From a virus (taxonomy: Duplodnaviria; Caudoviricetes): a DNA stretch of 64,000 nucleotides. The stretch spans positions 3,745-67,744 of IMG/VR virus record IMGVR_UViG_3300025961_000001; one strand, 5' to 3'. Shown piece by piece: positions 29,679 to 53,624 of this stretch. A program made the translations under genes and the position numbers. Under the pieces are notes generated by a model, which did not search any database, had not been told where the DNA came from, and saw only the letters and a program-made list of their open reading frames with translations. How positions within the stretch are numbered: position 1 is the stretch's first letter; every line of letters begins with the position of its first letter.

Positions 29679-30145
29679 GCGCCATAGAACTCACCGACTC
29701 CGAGAAGATCATGCGAGCGGTTAACTCCTCAAAGATCAACCGCCTAGAGGCATTGATGCAGGCAGGCTATCCTCCAGTCTACCCAGAGGTCACGCACCAC
29801 TTCACCAAAGGCGACGGTGTAAACGGGAAGATGTACGTTAGATCAATCCTAATGAAAAGGGGTATCTGCGTTACTTCTAAGATTCACACGTGGGAACATC
29901 CCTTCTTTGTTATGACTGGGTCTATGACCTGGTTCAATGAAGTCGAGGGCATGGACGAAGCTGTTCACATTCAGGCTCCTTACTTCGGCATAACTAAACC
30001 TGGAACGCGCCGCGCCATTCTAATTCATGAGGACGTGATTATGACCGCTTGCTATGCTACCGATCTAGAAGATGTGGCGGAGATTGAGCGGACAATAATC
30101 TATCCACACGAAGTTCCGCCTAACACTTTTGAACTGACACAATGA
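29675..30145 (+). CDS. Cupin-like protein
   Basis: HHF..YVRSI...TSKIH..EH, APY.GI.KPGTRR...HED. Confidence 0.7.
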   Translation: MSAIELTDSEKIMRAVNSSKINRLEALMQAGYPPVYPEVTHHFTKGDGVNGKMYVRSILMKRGICVTSKIHTWEHPFFVMTGSMTWFNEVEGMDEAVHIQAPYFGITKPGTRRAILIHEDVIMTACYATDLEDVAEIERTIIYPHEVPPNTFELTQ

Positions 30146-50115: not shown

Positions 50116-50158
50116 AGTTGTTTTTGTTCTCTGTCGTTTTTGGTTGTTCTGTTCTCTG

Positions 50159-50494
50159 TTACTTCTTTGACTTACGCTTACTGGTTGCCATTTCTCTAAC
50201 TGGGACCGATTCTAGGAATCCAAAGGCTGCTGTTTCTTCCGAAGGAGTCGCGGCATCTTCCGGTTCCTTGCCGGCTTCCGGTATCGCCTGGTGTGCCGGT
50301 ATCTCATACTCTATCCATCCCGGTCTGAAGTTAATAAGTAGCGAGTCCTTGTGCCACTCTTGGTCTCCCGAGATGCACTTGGTTATCTTACGTCCTCGGT
50401 AGATCTCAAGGGCTTTAGCCATAGCTGAGCCTGCATCGTATCCTTTTACGTCTACCCGTTTTCCATCTGACAGTGTGATTTTGTAAGTTATCAT
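50159..50494 (-). CDS. Hypothetical protein
   Basis: A/C-rich leader, ATG start. Confidence 0.65.
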   Translation of the reverse strand: MITYKITLSDGKRVDVKGYDAGSAMAKALEIYRGRKITKCISGDQEWHKDSLLINFRPGWIEYEIPAHQAIPEAGKEPEDAATPSEETAAFGFLESVPVREMATSKRKSKK

Positions 50495-50534
50495 GTTTAT
50501 AGGTTGTTCTGTTCGTTATTTAAGGCATCTTAAA

Positions 50535-50741
50535 TTAAGCTTTCTTTCCGGTTCTGTTTAGGCTTCTCATCTTCTTGATAGCTCTCTCATCCTTAGTTCC
50601 ACCAGACGCTAGGTACAAGCACGCCTGTAACCAAGATCTAGGGTAGTAGTTTGATTGTATCTCTCGATACGGAGCTACCAGCTCTTCCCATTTGTCCGGG
50701 TAGAACTTTTTGATTAAGGTTAATGCCGATTCTTTGTTCAT
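50535..50741 (-). CDS. Hypothetical protein
   Basis: A-rich leader, ATG start. Confidence 0.55.
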   Translation of the reverse strand: MNKESALTLIKKFYPDKWEELVAPYREIQSNYYPRSWLQACLYLASGGTKDERAIKKMRSLNRTGKKA

Positions 50742-50764
50742 TTTGTTTTTCGATTATGCCCGTC

Positions 50765-51330
50765 GTTGCCGGGCTAAGTTTAGCTTGGGATAGAGGGAGT
50801 GAGAAGAGCGTATTTCCCCCTAACCCCATAGGATTAGGAGGTAAAGTGAAAGCCCGGTCTGTCGGTCGTTTCGCTTCGCTGCCAAAGATTCTTGGTCGCT
50901 GGTGGTATGACTGCTTTGCCAGCTCTCTTTAGCCTTTCCCCGATCAAAGAACCATTCCGTTGATCGCGTCATTTACTGCTTAGCTTCCGGAATTGCACCG
51001 CCAGCCTAAGCACCGTTGGATGTCCGGACCGCTTGGAGTCGGGAAGCACTGAAGAGCGAGCCTAGCGCCTGTACCTAGGCCATAATCGGGCAACTCGGTT
51101 CTAGAAACCTAATCCCGGTTGGAACGTATTTAATACGCCTTCGCTCATCAGTGCCGCCCTGCTGTTCGACAGCACGGACACCGATTTTCTAACACTGGAG
51201 CGCTTATTGTGTTCGCGGTCCAGTTAATTTTTACCAGTGCTACCTTCCTAACCCACTCGGCTTTGAGTGCGGCGGCTTGTGGGCCAATCGGTAGATGGGG
51301 TCTTGGAGTCGATGGCGGGACTCGCACGCT
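50765..51330 (-). ncRNA. Candidate large structured non-coding RNA (or structured DNA origin)
   Basis: No credible ORF; many nested stems including 13/14 bp helix 51046-51059 with 51141-51154; T-loop-like CGG-TGCAATT-CCG. Confidence 0.5.
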
Positions 51331-51337
51331 TCAAGTT

Positions 51338-51520
51338 TTAGAAGCTCCGGGTGCGTTTTATCCTTTCTTTCCAGGCTTGTTTAGCCTCTGGTGTTCCATA
51401 CCCGTACTTAGCGCGATCGTTAAGAAACTTCTTTCTAGCCTCTTCCCACTCACGCTTAGCCGCAGCATCGTCCTTTGCCTGCTTGGCCGTGAACTGATTT
51501 AATCTGGGTACGTTTGGCAT
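51338..51520 (-). CDS. Small basic helical protein
   Basis: 60 aa ORF between RNA elements. Confidence 0.5.
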   Translation of the reverse strand: MPNVPRLNQFTAKQAKDDAAAKREWEEARKKFLNDRAKYGYGTPEAKQAWKERIKRTRSF

Positions 51521-51557
51521 TGCAGTGAATGCTTCCGTAGCCGGTGTCCCTCACGTC

Positions 51558-51665
51558 CTGAGTTGACCCGACTGGATTCGAACCAGCATGGCCGCGCGAC
51601 CAGCTCTAACGCCCAGGTTGCAACCTAAGACGCTGCGTCTACCATTCCGCCACGGGTCAACTCAG
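51558..51665 (-). ncRNA. tRNA-like element (class II D/T/variable arms, aberrant anticodon arm, no CCA)
   Basis: TGGCGGAATGGTAGACGC D-arm; GCTGG-TTCGAAT-CCAGT T-arm; 13 bp closing stem. Confidence 0.75.
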
Positions 51666-51800
51666 AAAATGAAAGAACGTCTTTAATCTCACAAAGGCTC
51701 TCACGACCAGACTAGGTTAGGCTGTAACGTGCCGCCAAAGGTCTGTGCGTTACCACAAATTGTCTTCAGCATAGCTAGCGCTGGTCCTGGGAGACTTTGT

Positions 51801-51912
51801 AAAAGCAAAGAACCGACCTCGGCTAGAAGATCGGTTCTTAGGAATTTCGCTCGGTCTTATTTGATGTTCGACCGAGAAAGTATGCTTAGAATCAATCCGA
51901 CTAGCCATCGGA
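51801..51912 (-). promoter_or_regulatory. Attenuator-like leader with complementary hairpin loops
   Basis: TCCGA-TGGCTAG-TCGGA and AAGAACCGATCTT-CTAGCC-GAGGTCGGTTCTT-TGCTTTT. Confidence 0.55.
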
Positions 51913-52003
51913 CGCAAGCCGGATCAAAAGAATCCCATTGAAACGATCAAGCGAAATCTGAAAAATATTTCGACTCTCCTCTGAAAATAGGGTCTACTCC
52001 CTC

Positions 52004-52354
52004 ATGAACTTCTTCTGTTGGGACACAGATAGGTTAGCCACTAAAGAAGATATTCATCGTCTAGAGAACCTGTTACGTCAGATCGAACACAATATCCTCA
52101 ATCGAATCTCTCATATCTCCATGAAAATCTCCGAGTTAGAAGCAAAGCTCGCCTCGTATGGCGACACCCTTACCAAGATCCAAGCGGAAGTCCAGGCCCT
52201 CAAGGACTCCATCAACACGGACCCCGATGTACCCCAAGCAGTCGTAGACTCGGTTGCCCGCATTGATAGCCTACTCACGTCCATTGACGAGATTAACCCT
52301 GACGTTACCGATGTCACGGATTCAGGGACAGGCGGCACTACCCTGCGCGGTTAA
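52004..52354 (+). CDS. Coiled-coil hypothetical protein
   Basis: LTKIQAEVQALKDS...VPQAVVDSV; followed by terminator. Confidence 0.7.
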   Translation: MNFFCWDTDRLATKEDIHRLENLLRQIEHNILNRISHISMKISELEAKLASYGDTLTKIQAEVQALKDSINTDPDVPQAVVDSVARIDSLLTSIDEINPDVTDVTDSGTGGTTLRG

Positions 52355-52365
52355 GCCTACCAAAG

Positions 52366-52403
52366 AAAAACCCCTGACTGGTTGGTTACAGCCCAGGGGT
52401 TTT
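52366..52403. terminator. Bidirectional intrinsic terminator
   Basis: AAAAACCCCTG...CAGGGGTTTT between convergent units. Confidence 0.75.
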
Positions 52404-52409
52404 AGTTAA

Positions 52410-52508
52410 GAGCGGGAGGGTTTGCACCTCCAATTTGGCAGCGATTCTTATTTCGGATATTGCCAGTTCCGGATTCTCGCTTGGGTATGCACTGGTTCCC
52501 GTTCGCTC
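52410..52508 (-). ncRNA. Second, more degenerate tRNA-like cloverleaf
   Basis: GAGCG/CGCTC closing stem, GGG..CCC arm, AGCGA/TCGCT arm, GGAGG-TGCAAAC-CCTCC T-arm. Confidence 0.5.
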
Positions 52509-52654
52509 AAAATAGATCCGGTTGCTACGATTAACGCCGACCGGGGCTGGCGTGGTACAAACAAAGGAACAGAGGCTGCGCAGTCATCGTTGCTGAAACC
52601 CTAGCGAGCGGCTGGTTATGAACAAAAACAGAAGCTCTAAAAACAACTCACGCT

Positions 52655-52683
52655 AAGCTTGCGCCTCGATCGGCTCAGGTCAA
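52655..52683 (-). promoter_or_regulatory. Putative promoter of a non-coding transcript
   Basis: TTGACC-17-AAGCTT on -. Confidence 0.4.
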
Positions 52684-52684
52684 G

Positions 52685-53137
52685 CTAAACCCCGAAGCGC
52701 TTCTTCCACGCGCTGGGGACCCAGCCAATAGTACGCTCGGCTCCCGGCTGAAATCTAAAGTGCCCCGCTTCATCAATGCAGGCGAGCGTAACATTGTACG
52801 GCTTACCCGCCGGGTCCAAATGGCCAATCATGACTGTCTCACCAACCGGCGGTTTCTCCTGGCTCAATAACTTCCACTCGCTTGCTTTGGTTTCAGTGGC
52901 CATAATATCCAACGCTGGCTGCTTCTGCGTGCGTGTCAATTCTGATGGCGTCATGACTCGGTCATAGTGGACTTCTACGCTCCTAGGGGCCTTCTCGTGC
53001 CCGTGGCACACATATCTCGCGTACATGCCATCCTTACATGGCACATCCAAAGTTGAGATAGTCTCGCCCGCTTTGATCTCAAGCGATTCTTTTCGTCCAT
53101 CCCACTCGCCGCCCGTAAAGAATATCTGGGTTTTCAT
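52685..53137 (-). CDS. Hypothetical protein (DUF551-like C-terminus)
   Basis: F.GG.WDG N-terminus; W..LSQEKPP.GETV...W. Confidence 0.6.
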   Translation of the reverse strand: MKTQIFFTGGEWDGRKESLEIKAGETISTLDVPCKDGMYARYVCHGHEKAPRSVEVHYDRVMTPSELTRTQKQPALDIMATETKASEWKLLSQEKPPVGETVMIGHLDPAGKPYNVTLACIDEAGHFRFQPGAERTIGWVPSAWKKRFGV

Positions 53138-53460
53138 CGGTAGTCGTAAATCTTGAGGTTATGTTTCTTGGCGCGAGCGGCCATATCGGCTGTTCCTTTT
53201 CCTCCTGGAAAGAGAACGCAGGCCTCGGCATACTTTGCCATCTCTTCGTTTCGGATTGGCCCTGCTGCGCGTCCGTGCTTGGTCCAGTTAGCAGGAAAGA
53301 GCTTTATGGGAATACCATTGGTCTCAGCAAAAAGTTCCGCGCATCGATCAGCACCCGTCGCGCCGCCTGAGACTACCTCGGTGATCGAAAGCCTGTGAAG
53401 ATTTAGGCAATCATCTGGGGTGAATTCGTAATCGCGGCCACCAGCTATGATAGTTTTCAT
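53134..53460 (-). CDS. SLOG-superfamily protein (DUF2493-like)
   Basis: IIAGGRDY, VSGGATGAD, FPANW..HGRAAGPIRNEEM, FPGGKGTADM. Confidence 0.88.
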   Translation of the reverse strand: MKTIIAGGRDYEFTPDDCLNLHRLSITEVVSGGATGADRCAELFAETNGIPIKLFPANWTKHGRAAGPIRNEEMAKYAEACVLFPGGKGTADMAARAKKHNLKIYDYR

Positions 53461-53624
53461 CGGCGATTCAAAACCTCCGCATAGGCGCGCCGCGCAAACA
53501 CAAGCTGACGATACGCAGACCCAACGCGCCAAGATTCAACTAGGACCCTTAGCCCGCTTGCTCTGCTGAACCGTTCCCAGGCTGCTAGGTAGTCGTCAAT
53601 GTAGGGTTGTAGGAATTTATTCAT
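53457..53624 (-). CDS. Hypothetical protein (55 aa, not in ORF track)
   Basis: MNKFLQPYIDDYLAAWERF...; ATGA-coupled at both ends. Confidence 0.5.
   Translation of the reverse strand: MNKFLQPYIDDYLAAWERFSRASGLRVLVESWRVGSAYRQLVFARRAYAEVLNRR

Follow-up and report, generated by a model that had tools for sequence, protein, structure and literature searches.

P1/P7 c4 and P4 CI are small RNAs encoded in phage leaders. They arise by RNase P-type processing of a tRNA-like stem, and their complementary boxes co-vary between heteroimmune relatives. The complementary loops of phi29 pRNA also co-vary among related phages. In the guanidine-IV (mepA) riboswitch, a kissing loop hinders completion of the terminator stem and gives read-through (PMC11611296). 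RNA C and RNA D of phage T4 are described as "RNAs of yet unknown functions" (PMC9697503).

The locus analysed here shares a kissing contact with the guanidine-IV riboswitch, the loop of an upstream hairpin pairing with that of a terminator hairpin. However, its loops are hypervariable (five versions) and hold no conserved ligand pocket, its 6-8 Watson-Crick pairs would on paper need no ligand, an extra hairpin lies between the partners, an RNA cassette rather than a transporter gene follows, and Rfam gave no riboswitch match (50300-53000 at E<=10; four relatives at E<=5). In contrast to c4 and CI, the complementary boxes are two hairpin loops 75 nt apart in one leader, not a ribosome-binding site or target gene start; the Rfam C4 model did not match, and there is neither an integrase nor a sign of lysogeny. 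The phi29 pRNA model did not match either, the fold is different, the third hairpin is a terminator, and the genome has terminal repeats with no sign of phi29-type biology. T4 RNA C/D and other non-decoding tRNA-like RNAs of phages are stable small RNAs that lie among the phage's tRNA genes or derive from them, and the RNA described below is likewise a tRNA-derived body that cannot decode. Unlike them, it belongs to a phage with no canonical tRNA, occupies a conserved helix socket that relatives fill with different RNAs, and is preceded by a kissing-loop leader; T4 RNA C/D show no sequence or model match to it. GOLLD and ROOL were not matched at E<=10 (50300-53000) or at gathering thresholds (whole window). 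Our literature searches gave no report of a leader or socket of this kind in phages, which does not prove absence; PMC10690425 gives 10,006 candidate RNAs. The best explanation, which we consider reasonably likely, is a modular minus-strand ncRNA locus in which a terminator gated by kissing loops leads to a processed, non-decoding tRNA-like RNA.

Genomic setting of the locus

The window is a stretch of 64 kb from a complete 67,744-bp phage genome with terminal repeats (rhizosphere metagenomes). The tyrosine integrase profile (Phage_integrase) had no match in this phage, and hence there is no sign of lysogeny; this lineage of soil and rhizosphere is probably virulent. Two minus-strand RNA units lie within 52686-50742 and flank a conserved plus-strand gene for a small coiled-coil protein. 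As the sequence-only reading had noted, the region is poor in ORFs: the only credible ones in 52684-50742 encode 60 aa (51520-51338, minus) and 116 aa (52004-52354, plus), and the ORFs inside 51337-50742 have negative codon scores. The dedicated minus-strand ncRNA locus that it proposed is supported, and compensatory changes speak for the leader, for the cassette RNA of a relative and for an array module. Terminators with U-tracts occur on one strand only, and the helices carry G.U pairs that the opposite strand would turn into A.C, which favours minus as the RNA strand. Judged by comparison with relatives, this stretch is a real, fast-changing locus of folded ncRNA. Its main feature, which could not be seen from the one sequence, is that it forms a mosaic of exchangeable modules in conserved sockets.

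No known family accounts for it. All 4227 Rfam families were scanned over 50300-53000 at E<=10, where nothing besides the tRNA model matched, and on four relatives at E<=5, where nothing did. The 2.6-kb region had no blastn match among 50,697 phage records. The neighbouring 150-aa gene had no relative among viral contigs, and a search with the SLOG gene gave 32 loci, none of which shared anything else with the island. With the 55-aa and coiled-coil alignments as queries, only the G001/L051 source was recovered again. Two scans of genome contigs gave no match, so no prophage and no host was found. A retron msr-msd or a DGR would require a reverse transcriptase, and a DGR also a template repeat matching a variable repeat; there was no RVT_1 match, no DGR-like pair and no repeat linking the island to a target gene. 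A bacterial Y RNA (YrlA with Rsr/Ro60) would require a TROVE-domain protein gene nearby and a match to a Y RNA model; the complete genome had no TROVE match, and Rfam gave no Y RNA match.

Logan contigs from other runs carry the same joints as these variants (51591 to 51644, 51671 to 51807, and 51839 to 51929/30), which supports them independently. The window's tRNA-like cargo, module M1 and the ORF-poor ~600 nt have near-identical copies only (>=97%), so the folds of these three are predictions from energy and the tRNA model.

A leader with co-varying kissing loops

51913..51958, minus strand: 5' part of the unit 2 leader, conserved and carrying a GCTTGA box (alignment A2)
51808..51912, minus strand: three-hairpin kissing-loop leader, ~105 nt (co-variation, terminator scan, folding)
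52004..52354, plus strand: small coiled-coil protein gene, 116 aa (homologues in relatives)

The conserved 5' part probably contains a promoter. A sigma-70 scan listed two sites where 2.2 would be expected, and neither is on the minus strand. Hairpin 1 (51912-51896) has the loop GGCTAG (51906-51901). Hairpin 3 (51839-51808), a terminator hairpin listed by the terminator scan and followed by a U-rich tract, has the loop CTAGCC (51826-51821), and hairpin 2 (51876-51850) lies between these pairing partners.

The pairing of the two loops co-varies, with five versions in the only six contigs that carry the leader, some of them closely related: GGCTAG/CTAGCC, GTACTAG/CTAGTAC, GGCAAG/CTTGCC, CCTGCGAA/TTCGCAGG and GTATCAG/CTGATAC. 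Cognate loops form 6-8 perfect base pairs and non-cognate loops 2-5, except between the window and L049, which have one common version; the loops of L049 and L050 differ by a single exact compensatory swap. Pairing of the observed length was reached in 13-163 of 5000 shuffles per contig. In alignment A2, 92.5% of the cells are paired (82.6 +/- 1.8 in shuffles; 0/500 reach) and 11 pairs are changed on both sides (0/500 reach), and sliding the partner columns left 36-53% paired. The sequence-only reading saw a loop-loop terminator and named absence of co-variation among the findings that would refute the RNA island; the terminator, at 51912-51808, is real, and co-variation is present in these loops, in module M3 and in the L047/L051 cargo. 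The leader fold has a z of -3.44. Cut to 105 nt, the window leader has a nested alternative as its minimum-free-energy structure rather than the kissing form, and the co-variation fits a kissing complex or an alternative long-range helix of the same bases alike. The kissing-loop terminator leader is a compact, probable control element without an Rfam entry.

The loops evolve much faster than the stems around them: 7 of the 11 pairs in the stem of hairpin 3 are invariant and 4 of 7 loop pairs are changed on both sides. Such loops could be the address labels of a trans-acting RNA, the leader RNA of one phage pairing with nascent leaders of its own type (hairpin 1 with hairpin 3 and vice versa) and so setting immunity, exclusion or dosage among co-infecting relatives, as c4 of P1/P7 and CI of P4 do. 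They could also join RNAs hand in hand into multimers as in phi29 pRNA. The number of loop versions among so few closely related contigs agrees with this, as does the likeness of the tRNA-like cargo, with its long terminal helix, to the RNase P-processed c4 and CI RNAs. We nevertheless regard address labels as unlikely, given that the partners are on one RNA at a distance that favours cis pairing, that no second loop target was found and the window has only a single such leader, that none of the Rfam families matched, and that without an integrase lysogeny is not indicated. A gate acting in cis on its own terminator is the reading we prefer.

Among the 41 terminator-like hairpins of the window, two have an upstream hairpin with a complementary loop. 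This leader is one; the second lies at 29765 and looks like a chance find, as shuffled loops give 1.1 on average.

The coiled-coil gene is divergent from the leader and is the sole protein gene retained within the island in all relatives (L047, L048, L049, L050, L051). The conserved core of its product starts at M40 (MKISEL...), and every Pfam match was under its cut-off. An AF2 model has two helices of 59 and 20 residues (pLDDT 79.3), and a Rop-like reading found no support, with no Foldseek match against the PDB at E<=0.001. A role as specificity partner of the loops was rejected, as the window and L050 share the protein and not the loops, whereas the window and L049 share the loops and not the protein.

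An exchangeable cassette with a sealed tRNA-Leu derivative

51672..51806, minus strand: optional helix-closed spacer module of ~135 nt, from leader to socket (presence or absence in relatives)
51558..51665, minus strand: cassette socket with tRNA-like cargo (tRNA model, relatives)
51659-51562, minus strand: tRNA-Leu-type body in the socket (ARAGORN, Rfam tRNA model)
51529..51557, minus strand: conserved 3' flank of the socket, GGACGTGAGGGACACCGGCTACGGAAGC (alignment)

The window, L049 and L047 have the spacer module, and L050, L048 and L051 lack it; an X2 contig has the joint 51671 to 51807, that is, across the module. Its fold has a z of -3.90, with 2/200 shuffles as good. The socket is closed by a helix of 13 bp here (CTGAGTTGA...TCAACTCAG) and 13-16 bp overall, whose outer 9 bp are common to all relatives and whose inner 4 bp hold two compensatory pair differences between types. 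Five distinct interiors of 108-220 nt occupy it: a tRNA-Leu derivative here and four other RNAs in relatives. The L050 interior is homologous to the window's cargo at its 5' and 3' ends, and between the L047 and L051 cargos 7 of the 14 pairs of one helix differ, all still paired. Socket and cargo fold with a z of -3.88 (0/200 shuffles as good). Each of the five other contigs has the GGACGTGAGGGACACCGGCTACGGAAGC flank at 93-100% identity, and the adjoining sequence on both sides is unrelated; in the slot downstream, protein genes are swapped too.

There is one copy of the palindrome GGTTGCAACC in the window, as many as chance would give. An integron attC has the R'' box RYYYAAC at its 5' end and the R' box GTTRRRY at its 3' end, and a tyrosine integrase goes with it. 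The socket was rejected as an attC, as GTTGAGC...GCTCAAC has the opposite order and Phage_integrase had no match.

The sequence-only reading counted two cloverleaf-like folds without a usable anticodon. One of them is the body in the socket, which RF00005 matches at 38.7 bits (cut-off 29, E 5.5e-6; the same match in the whole genome). It is also the one aberrant tRNA-like gene called by ARAGORN, as 'tRNA-???' with 'tgca'. The other, module M1, was not confirmed, with no tRNA-model match at E<=10 and a fold no better than shuffles (z -0.93). The cargo has kept its acceptor stem, both the D arm and the T arm, the long variable arm and a discriminator A, and CCA is not encoded. The anticodon loop has 13 nt where the RF00005 model has 5, leaving no three-base anticodon. 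The 15 nt between the strands of the anticodon stem pair with themselves into a closed hairpin, AGGT-TGCA-ACCT, with a 4-nt loop, and a cargo so closed cannot decode. In the D-arm region, 27 nt align with a phage tRNA-Leu at 96%. Against the 50,697 phage records, blastn gave partial matches only (0/37 records cover >=80%). This phage has no canonical tRNA, so that the aberrant cargo is the sole tRNA-model match, and a default Rfam run over the whole window at gathering thresholds missed even that. At an 80% threshold, ARAGORN made many calls, some inside coding genes, which we treat as noise.

An RNA still active in translation or aminoacyl transfer, as a quadruplet-reading or intron-containing tRNA or as a leucine acceptor for a non-ribosomal reaction, is highly improbable. 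The intact arms and discriminator would suit it, as would the four-base call and the tRNA-Arg(tct) with a 10-nt intron that ARAGORN gives when introns are allowed, and bacterial LeuRS is not known to read the anticodon. However, the presumed anticodon region is paired, an Arg anticodon is implausible on a Leu-type body (the call was rejected), and TGCA is a palindrome, with the same TTGCAA hairpin tip in the unrelated cargos of L047 and L051. Moreover, the tRNA model does not match the socket RNAs of relatives, and searches for a CCA-adding enzyme, PTH2 or an aminoacyl-transfer gene were negative. The cargo is better read as a non-decoding derivative.

Unit 1 and its module array

52518..52686, minus strand: conserved non-coding element of ~165 nt that opens unit 1 (alignment of six sequences)
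52410..52508, minus strand: module M1, a predicted four-way junction of 99 nt (MFE)
52361..52400, both strands: intrinsic terminator hairpin, common to unit 1 (minus) and the convergent plus-strand gene (terminator scan)

The ~165-nt element opens with AGCTTGACC directly behind the 150-aa gene's stop codon, and its final ~35 nt (52553-52518) do not vary in any of the six contigs. It is 76% identical to its counterpart in the relative G001, where the flanking genes differ, and holds no conserved ORF, as an indel puts the two sequences in different frames. The six-sequence alignment gave no convincing consensus fold or co-variation. Element, M1 and terminator together fold no better than shuffles (z -0.36), and no complement of its terminator loop was found by eye. 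Boxes like AGCTTGACC are not enriched (23 vs 15.6 expected; 4/100 shuffles reach 23).

An array of interchangeable small folded modules follows, 0-4 in five relatives and one here, and then the terminator hairpin, which is kept at the end of every array variant. M1 has a GAGCG/CGCTC closing helix, and the loop of its 3' hairpin, GGAGG-TGCAAAC-CCTCC, is T-loop-like; the module is missing from G001 and is module four of a longer array in L050 (97% identity). M1, M2 and M3 recur in differing orders among contigs, and the terminal helix of M3 co-varies. Unit 1 follows the same exchangeable-module principle as unit 2.

Sharp, shared module boundaries could also mark DNA exchange sites, used by homing endonucleases or short homology. 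In a mosaic accessory region, the sites would be the palindromic helix with its flanks and the invariant stretch that ends the ~165-nt element, and the interiors would be decaying tRNA genes and junk with no function as RNA. HNH/AP2-type endonuclease genes lie within the islands of relatives, the downstream slot exchanges protein genes as well, and the cargo here clearly comes from a tRNA-Leu gene. Being invariant, the socket's outer 9 bp give no co-variation signal, and a perfect 13-bp inverted repeat with swapped interiors could equally serve DNA recombination. Against this, compensatory and G.U changes preserve helices in the leader, the L047/L051 cargo and M3, two compensatory pairs fall in the socket's inner 4 bp, the U-tract terminators are confined to one strand, modules fold 3.4-4.25 sd better than shuffles, and no tyrosine recombinase is encoded. 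We think it improbable that DNA sites alone explain the locus. The two readings are compatible, and the ends of functional RNAs may double as exchange points.

Proposed function

In the modular RNA locus that we favour, the loop of hairpin 1 (6-8 nt) would pair with that of hairpin 3, the intrinsic terminator. By analogy with the guanidine-IV riboswitch, this contact most likely sets the extent of transcriptional read-through. Read-through would reach a socket of constant build, with a 13-16 bp helix between conserved flanks, and there an exchangeable RNA would be presented, here predicted to be a non-decoding leucine-tRNA derivative with a sealed anticodon loop. The length of the terminal helix and the U-rich sequences that link the modules suggest excision of the RNAs from a precursor; cleavage by tRNA-processing enzymes or RNase E would yield stable tRNA-like RNAs. 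These may titrate or decoy a host enzyme that handles tRNA. A more speculative and rather doubtful extension is that the socket is purpose-built for swappable tRNA-derived RNAs, with a fixed processing helix and flanks. The fast-changing loop address would keep the gate private from co-infecting relatives, and cargos and array would form an arsenal of decoys or inhibitors against host tRNA-directed enzymes or defences, traded by recombination like protein anti-defence genes.

Accessory regions of phages are usually read as small protein genes, whereas the variable content here is largely RNA. A single conserved socket holds at least five different folded RNAs, with near-identical genomic context around it, and the array modules are shuffled as well. 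Should these RNAs have a function, phages would be trading RNA as cargo in the way they trade anti-defence proteins. The tRNA-Leu derivative is a clear new case for the old question of non-decoding RNAs of the T4 RNA C/D type. Standard tRNA and Rfam pipelines give little or nothing at this locus, which is an annotation gap.

The ORF-poor stretch

51338..51520, minus strand: basic orphan ORF of 60 aa (ORF list)
50742..51337, minus strand: ORF-poor ~596 nt of locally stable modules (folding z)
51155-51045, minus strand: helix-closed module of 111 nt, with a 14-bp closing helix and three hairpins (fold)
50927-50804, minus strand: helix-closed module of 124 nt (fold)

The 60-aa ORF found only itself among 5.8 billion protein clusters, had no Pfam or PHROG match, and has a codon score of +0.08. 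A coding reading of the ~600 nt beyond it was rejected: the ORFs within 51337-50742 score -0.02 to -0.24 (long genes average +0.18), with no Pfam or PHROG match and no repeats. No diverged homologue of this stretch was found.

Of the four T-loop sites in the sequence-only reading, three are hairpins with T-loop-like loops of 7 nt (52426, 51582 and 50997), and the one at ~51315-51330 is a hairpin with a 5-nt loop and no T-loop. Three such hairpins compare with 0.40 in shuffles (11/2000 reach 3) in a post hoc test; window-wide, the T-loop consensus is at chance level (12 matches vs 12.6 expected).

The stability behind the claim of a large RNA with ~570 nt of nested helices holds, as 51337-50742 folds with a z of -3.19 on the minus strand (1/100 shuffles as good) and -2.03 on the plus strand. 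In the predicted folds, however, it looks more like a string of separate helix-closed modules of ~110-125 nt than one large RNA. The 111-nt and 124-nt modules have z values of -4.25 and -4.15 (0/200 shuffles as good for either), and the segment 51044-50937 is no better than shuffles (z -0.16). In one X2 contig the two strands of the 14-bp helix are retained but the interior, 51059-51141, is not.

Genome setting of the RNA island

The island lies within a block of the window (45-64 kb) that is coded wholly on the minus strand. The window spans bases 3745-67744 of a 67,744-bp IMG/VR virus record that has direct terminal repeats and is rated complete, and few of its phage genes were recognised by PHROG and Pfam. 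Rhizosphere and soil metagenome runs carry the stretch; 16 were listed, none of them recorded as RNA. The complete genome had no match to tyrosine integrase, reverse transcriptase, TROVE/Ro60, CCA-adding enzyme or PTH2. The scarcity of ORFs noticed in the sequence-only reading was borne out, as just two credible ORFs lie between 52684 and 50742:

51520-51338, minus strand: 60-aa ORF
52004-52354, plus strand: 116-aa coiled-coil ORF, on the strand opposite to the RNA units

Relatives carry three unrelated N-terminal extensions of the coiled-coil gene (window 52004-52120), and its distant homologues P0007 and P0008 have a hydrophobic N-terminal helix in place of the extension. Upstream of the island, a 132-aa SLOG/YspA-like gene (window 53134-53532; PF10686, 41.6 bits) is present in contig L049, missing from G001 and replaced in L047; the 32 loci homologous to it in other phages have nothing else in common with the island region.

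The whole window had no match in Rfam at gathering thresholds. A permissive scan of 50300-53000 returned the tRNA model and one chance-level row (bxd_5 at 13.6 bits, cut-off 50). The default run on 64 kb had missed this tRNA match, 9.7 bits above its cut-off and found on the shorter stretch, which is a filter effect. Beyond tRNA, no Rfam 15 family was matched by the island or by the relatives' sequences scanned.

Relatives reveal a mosaic locus

Two partial relatives were reached via a structural protein: G001 (49 kb, ~75% nucleotide identity to the window) and G002 (36 kb, ~90% identity), which stops before the island. A pattern scan with a 23-mer taken at the invariant end of a 165-nt element recovered five metagenome contigs, and a scan with the 3' flank of the socket added one further viral contig, L051. 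The unit 2 leader was thus compared in six sequences (window, L049, L047, L050, L048 and L051), as was the 165-nt element (window, L049, L047, L050, L048 and L046, which is G001). The junctions 51591 to 51644, 51671 to 51807 and 51839 to 51929/30 also occur in Logan contigs of other runs, with loose ends at 52509. Because the same junctions appear there independently, artefacts of one assembly do not explain the variants.

Where a 111-aa gene ends (window 50118-50157), a 40-nt junction shows 100% identity to L050 and 89% to L051, with unrelated sequence for ~0.7-1.4 kb upstream, marking another conserved swap-slot boundary. HNH/AP2-type homing-endonuclease-like genes, which the window lacks, occur within or next to the island in relatives (L042:16329-16880, L042:17526-18095, L048 oriented 1254-1757 and L051 oriented ~1150-1700). 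These genes may drive the island's mosaicism.

Loop pairing in the unit 2 leader co-varies

The RNA nature of the locus and its kissing loop are well supported. In all six leader contigs, a conserved GCTTGA box is followed by three hairpins, placed in the window as follows:

51912-51896, minus strand: hp1
51876-51850, minus strand: hp2
51839-51808, minus strand: hp3, 12-13 bp, then a U-rich tract; a terminator according to the scan

The loop of hp1 is complementary to that of hp3 in 6/6 contigs, in five sequence versions.

Loop sequences of hp1 and hp3
Window and L049: GGCTAG (hp1), CTAGCC (hp3)
L047: GTACTAG (hp1), CTAGTAC (hp3)
L050: GGCAAG (hp1), CTTGCC (hp3)
L048: CCTGCGAA (hp1), TTCGCAGG (hp3)
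L051: GTATCAG (hp1), CTGATAC (hp3)

We compared all loops in a matrix in which the region was bounded by conserved landmarks, with no choice of loops by eye. Cognate loops formed 6-8 perfect pairs and non-cognate loops 2-5, except for window and L049, which have one common version. For each contig, 13-163 of 5000 shuffles of the hp3 interior attained the observed pairing length. In a MAFFT alignment of the leader, 92.5% of 173 cells were paired (82.6 ± 1.8 in shuffles, 0/500 as high), with a one-column misalignment of L048 accounting for some of the unpaired cells; sliding the partner columns left 36-53% paired. Changes on both sides affected 11 of the 30 pairs (0/500 shuffles), including 4/7 in the kissing helix and 5/7 in hp2. 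The hp3 stem is invariant at 7 of 11 pairs, and the other four have one-sided, G.U-type changes. The otherwise very similar L049 and L050 differ by one exact compensatory loop swap and, in hp2, by two pairs inserted on both strands.

These comparisons establish that the predicted hp1-hp3 loop pairing is conserved and co-varies on the minus-strand RNA. The loop-loop terminator proposed earlier was therefore upheld, since the loop pairing co-varies and hp3 is terminator-like in the scan. Co-variation alone fits a kissing complex and a nested long-range helix of the same bases equally and cannot separate them. The nested form is the minimum free energy (MFE) structure of the window leader cut to 105 nt, and hp3 is intact when folded with more context. 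Compensatory changes in hp1's own stem favour two standing hairpins. The loop sequences of these hairpins change fast within near-identical stems, which suggests an address function and for that reason raises a trans-acting reading as a rival; the window contains no second kissing-loop leader.

In the window only, at 51925-51896, ATCCGGCT upstream of hp1 is able to pair with AGTCGGAT. This alternative helix would sequester the hp1 loop and is the MFE choice when the leader is folded in longer context.

The leader is like the guanidine-IV riboswitch in architecture only. In having complementary boxes that co-vary, it resembles the immunity RNAs c4 and CI and the phi29 pRNA.

A conserved socket holds exchanged cargos

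The socket (a closing helix, 51558-51665 on the minus strand, with conserved flanks) directly follows the hp3 U-tract in L050, L048 and L051. An optional 135-nt helix-closed module precedes it in the window, L049 and L047 (fold z -3.90 in the window). The outer socket helix strands, CTGAGTTGA ... TCAACTCAG, are constant in all six contigs, and the 3' flank is 93-100% conserved. The inner four pairs of the helix have two compensatory pair differences between the window type and the others. Within this conserved socket, structured interiors have been exchanged.

Cargos of the socket
Window and L049: 108 nt socket-to-socket, tRNA-Leu-like RNA
L050: 130 nt; first ~20 nt, T arm and 3' strand homologous to the window cargo, middle different
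L047 and L051: 183 nt, RNA with a 16-bp closing helix
L048: 220 nt, multi-hairpin RNA

Between L047 and L051, 7 of 14 pairs of one internal helix differ and all are still paired (one double change, six via G.U). Because these pairs persist, six through G.U, the RNA strand is the window's minus strand. The tRNA model had no match to the other cargos at E<=5. A TTGCAA palindrome tips hairpins with different stems in the cargos of the window (51616-51625), L047 and L051; with only two cargo families, this may be coincidence, and a self-pairing (dimerisation) tip is possible.

The window cargo derives from tRNA-Leu and lacks a decoding loop. ARAGORN called a single gene in the whole window, 'tRNA-???' with 'tgca', at 51562-51659 (minus strand). 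The Rfam tRNA model scored the cargo at 38.7 bits (cut-off 29, E 5.5e-6), with 13 nt at five model loop positions. The body is of the long-variable-arm type, and its D-arm region is 96% identical to a phage tRNA-Leu over 27 nt; no phage record covered 80% of the cargo. Between the anticodon-stem strands, 15 nt pair as AGGT/ACCT around TGCA, and six perfect pairs extend the acceptor stem into the flanks (13 bp in total). Of two cloverleafs without a usable anticodon in the sequence-only reading, this self-paired one stood; the other, module M1, folds no better than shuffles (z -0.93; comparison copy at only 97%).

Of the four sites read as T-loops, three form hairpins around a 7-nt T[GT]C[AG]A loop, and the fourth is not of this kind. 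The minus strand of the island has three such hairpins (at least 3 bp); shuffles average 0.40, and 11 of 2000 reach three, in a test that was post hoc. Across the window, the T-loop consensus occurs at chance level (12 matches, 12.6 expected).

We infer that the cargos would be excised and serve as stable tRNA-like RNAs. A putative decoy role fits a tRNA body retained without its anticodon; the relatives' RNAs in the same socket no longer resemble tRNA. Among the closest known things to this cargo are T4 RNA C and D, small RNAs that do not decode and whose functions PMC9697503 describes as yet unknown. Candidate structured RNAs in IMG/VR have been surveyed (PMC10690425).

Variable module strings in unit 1

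The ~165-nt non-coding element (window 52686-52518) is also in G001, directly behind a conserved 55-aa gene. Alignment and folding established no structure for it. Past its invariant end come variable strings of modules, U-rich linkers and one common terminator, which in G001 directly follows the element.

Module arrays
G001: no modules
Window: M1
L049: M2-M3-M5
L050: M2-M4-M3-M1
L047: diverged M3 and another module
L048: short segment of its own

M2 (L049:1318-1413; L050 oriented 670-765) is predicted to form a four-way junction, with a canonical T arm (CTTGG-TTCGATT-CCAAG) as the first hairpin and a run of T after the closing helix. M3 (L049:1415-1489; L050 reverse strand, oriented 898-972; L047:7755-7831) is a ~70-nt RNA-like unit that no tRNA finder called. 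Its 8-bp terminal helix co-varies between L049/L050 and L047, with the versions GGCGGTTT/AAACTGCC and GGTGGTTT/AAACCACC. The helix is followed by ACCA and a U-rich linker, resembling a tRNA 3' end.

The ORF-poor 600 nt

The ORF-poor ~600 nt had been read as one large structured RNA. The stretch does fold well (z -3.19 for the minus and -2.03 for the plus strand), and local folding splits it into modules:

51155-51045, minus strand: module, z -4.25
51044-50937, minus strand: segment folding no better than shuffles, z -0.16
50927-50804, minus strand: module, z -4.15

All fetched copies were at least 99% identical. A contig of run X2 retains the two strands of the 14-bp helix that closes 51155-51045 and lacks the 83-nt interior (shorter aligned side, only 30 nt), which hints at a possible second socket. 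L050 and L051 have unrelated sequence in this slot; part of it is ORF-poor (z -2.43) and part is a small gene.

The end of the G001 contig carries a tandem repeat (GTCGCAGCGTAGGTCGCA..., period ~21-24 nt; L042:18860-19010), which falls within a 293-aa ORF with repeated DATYAATR units.
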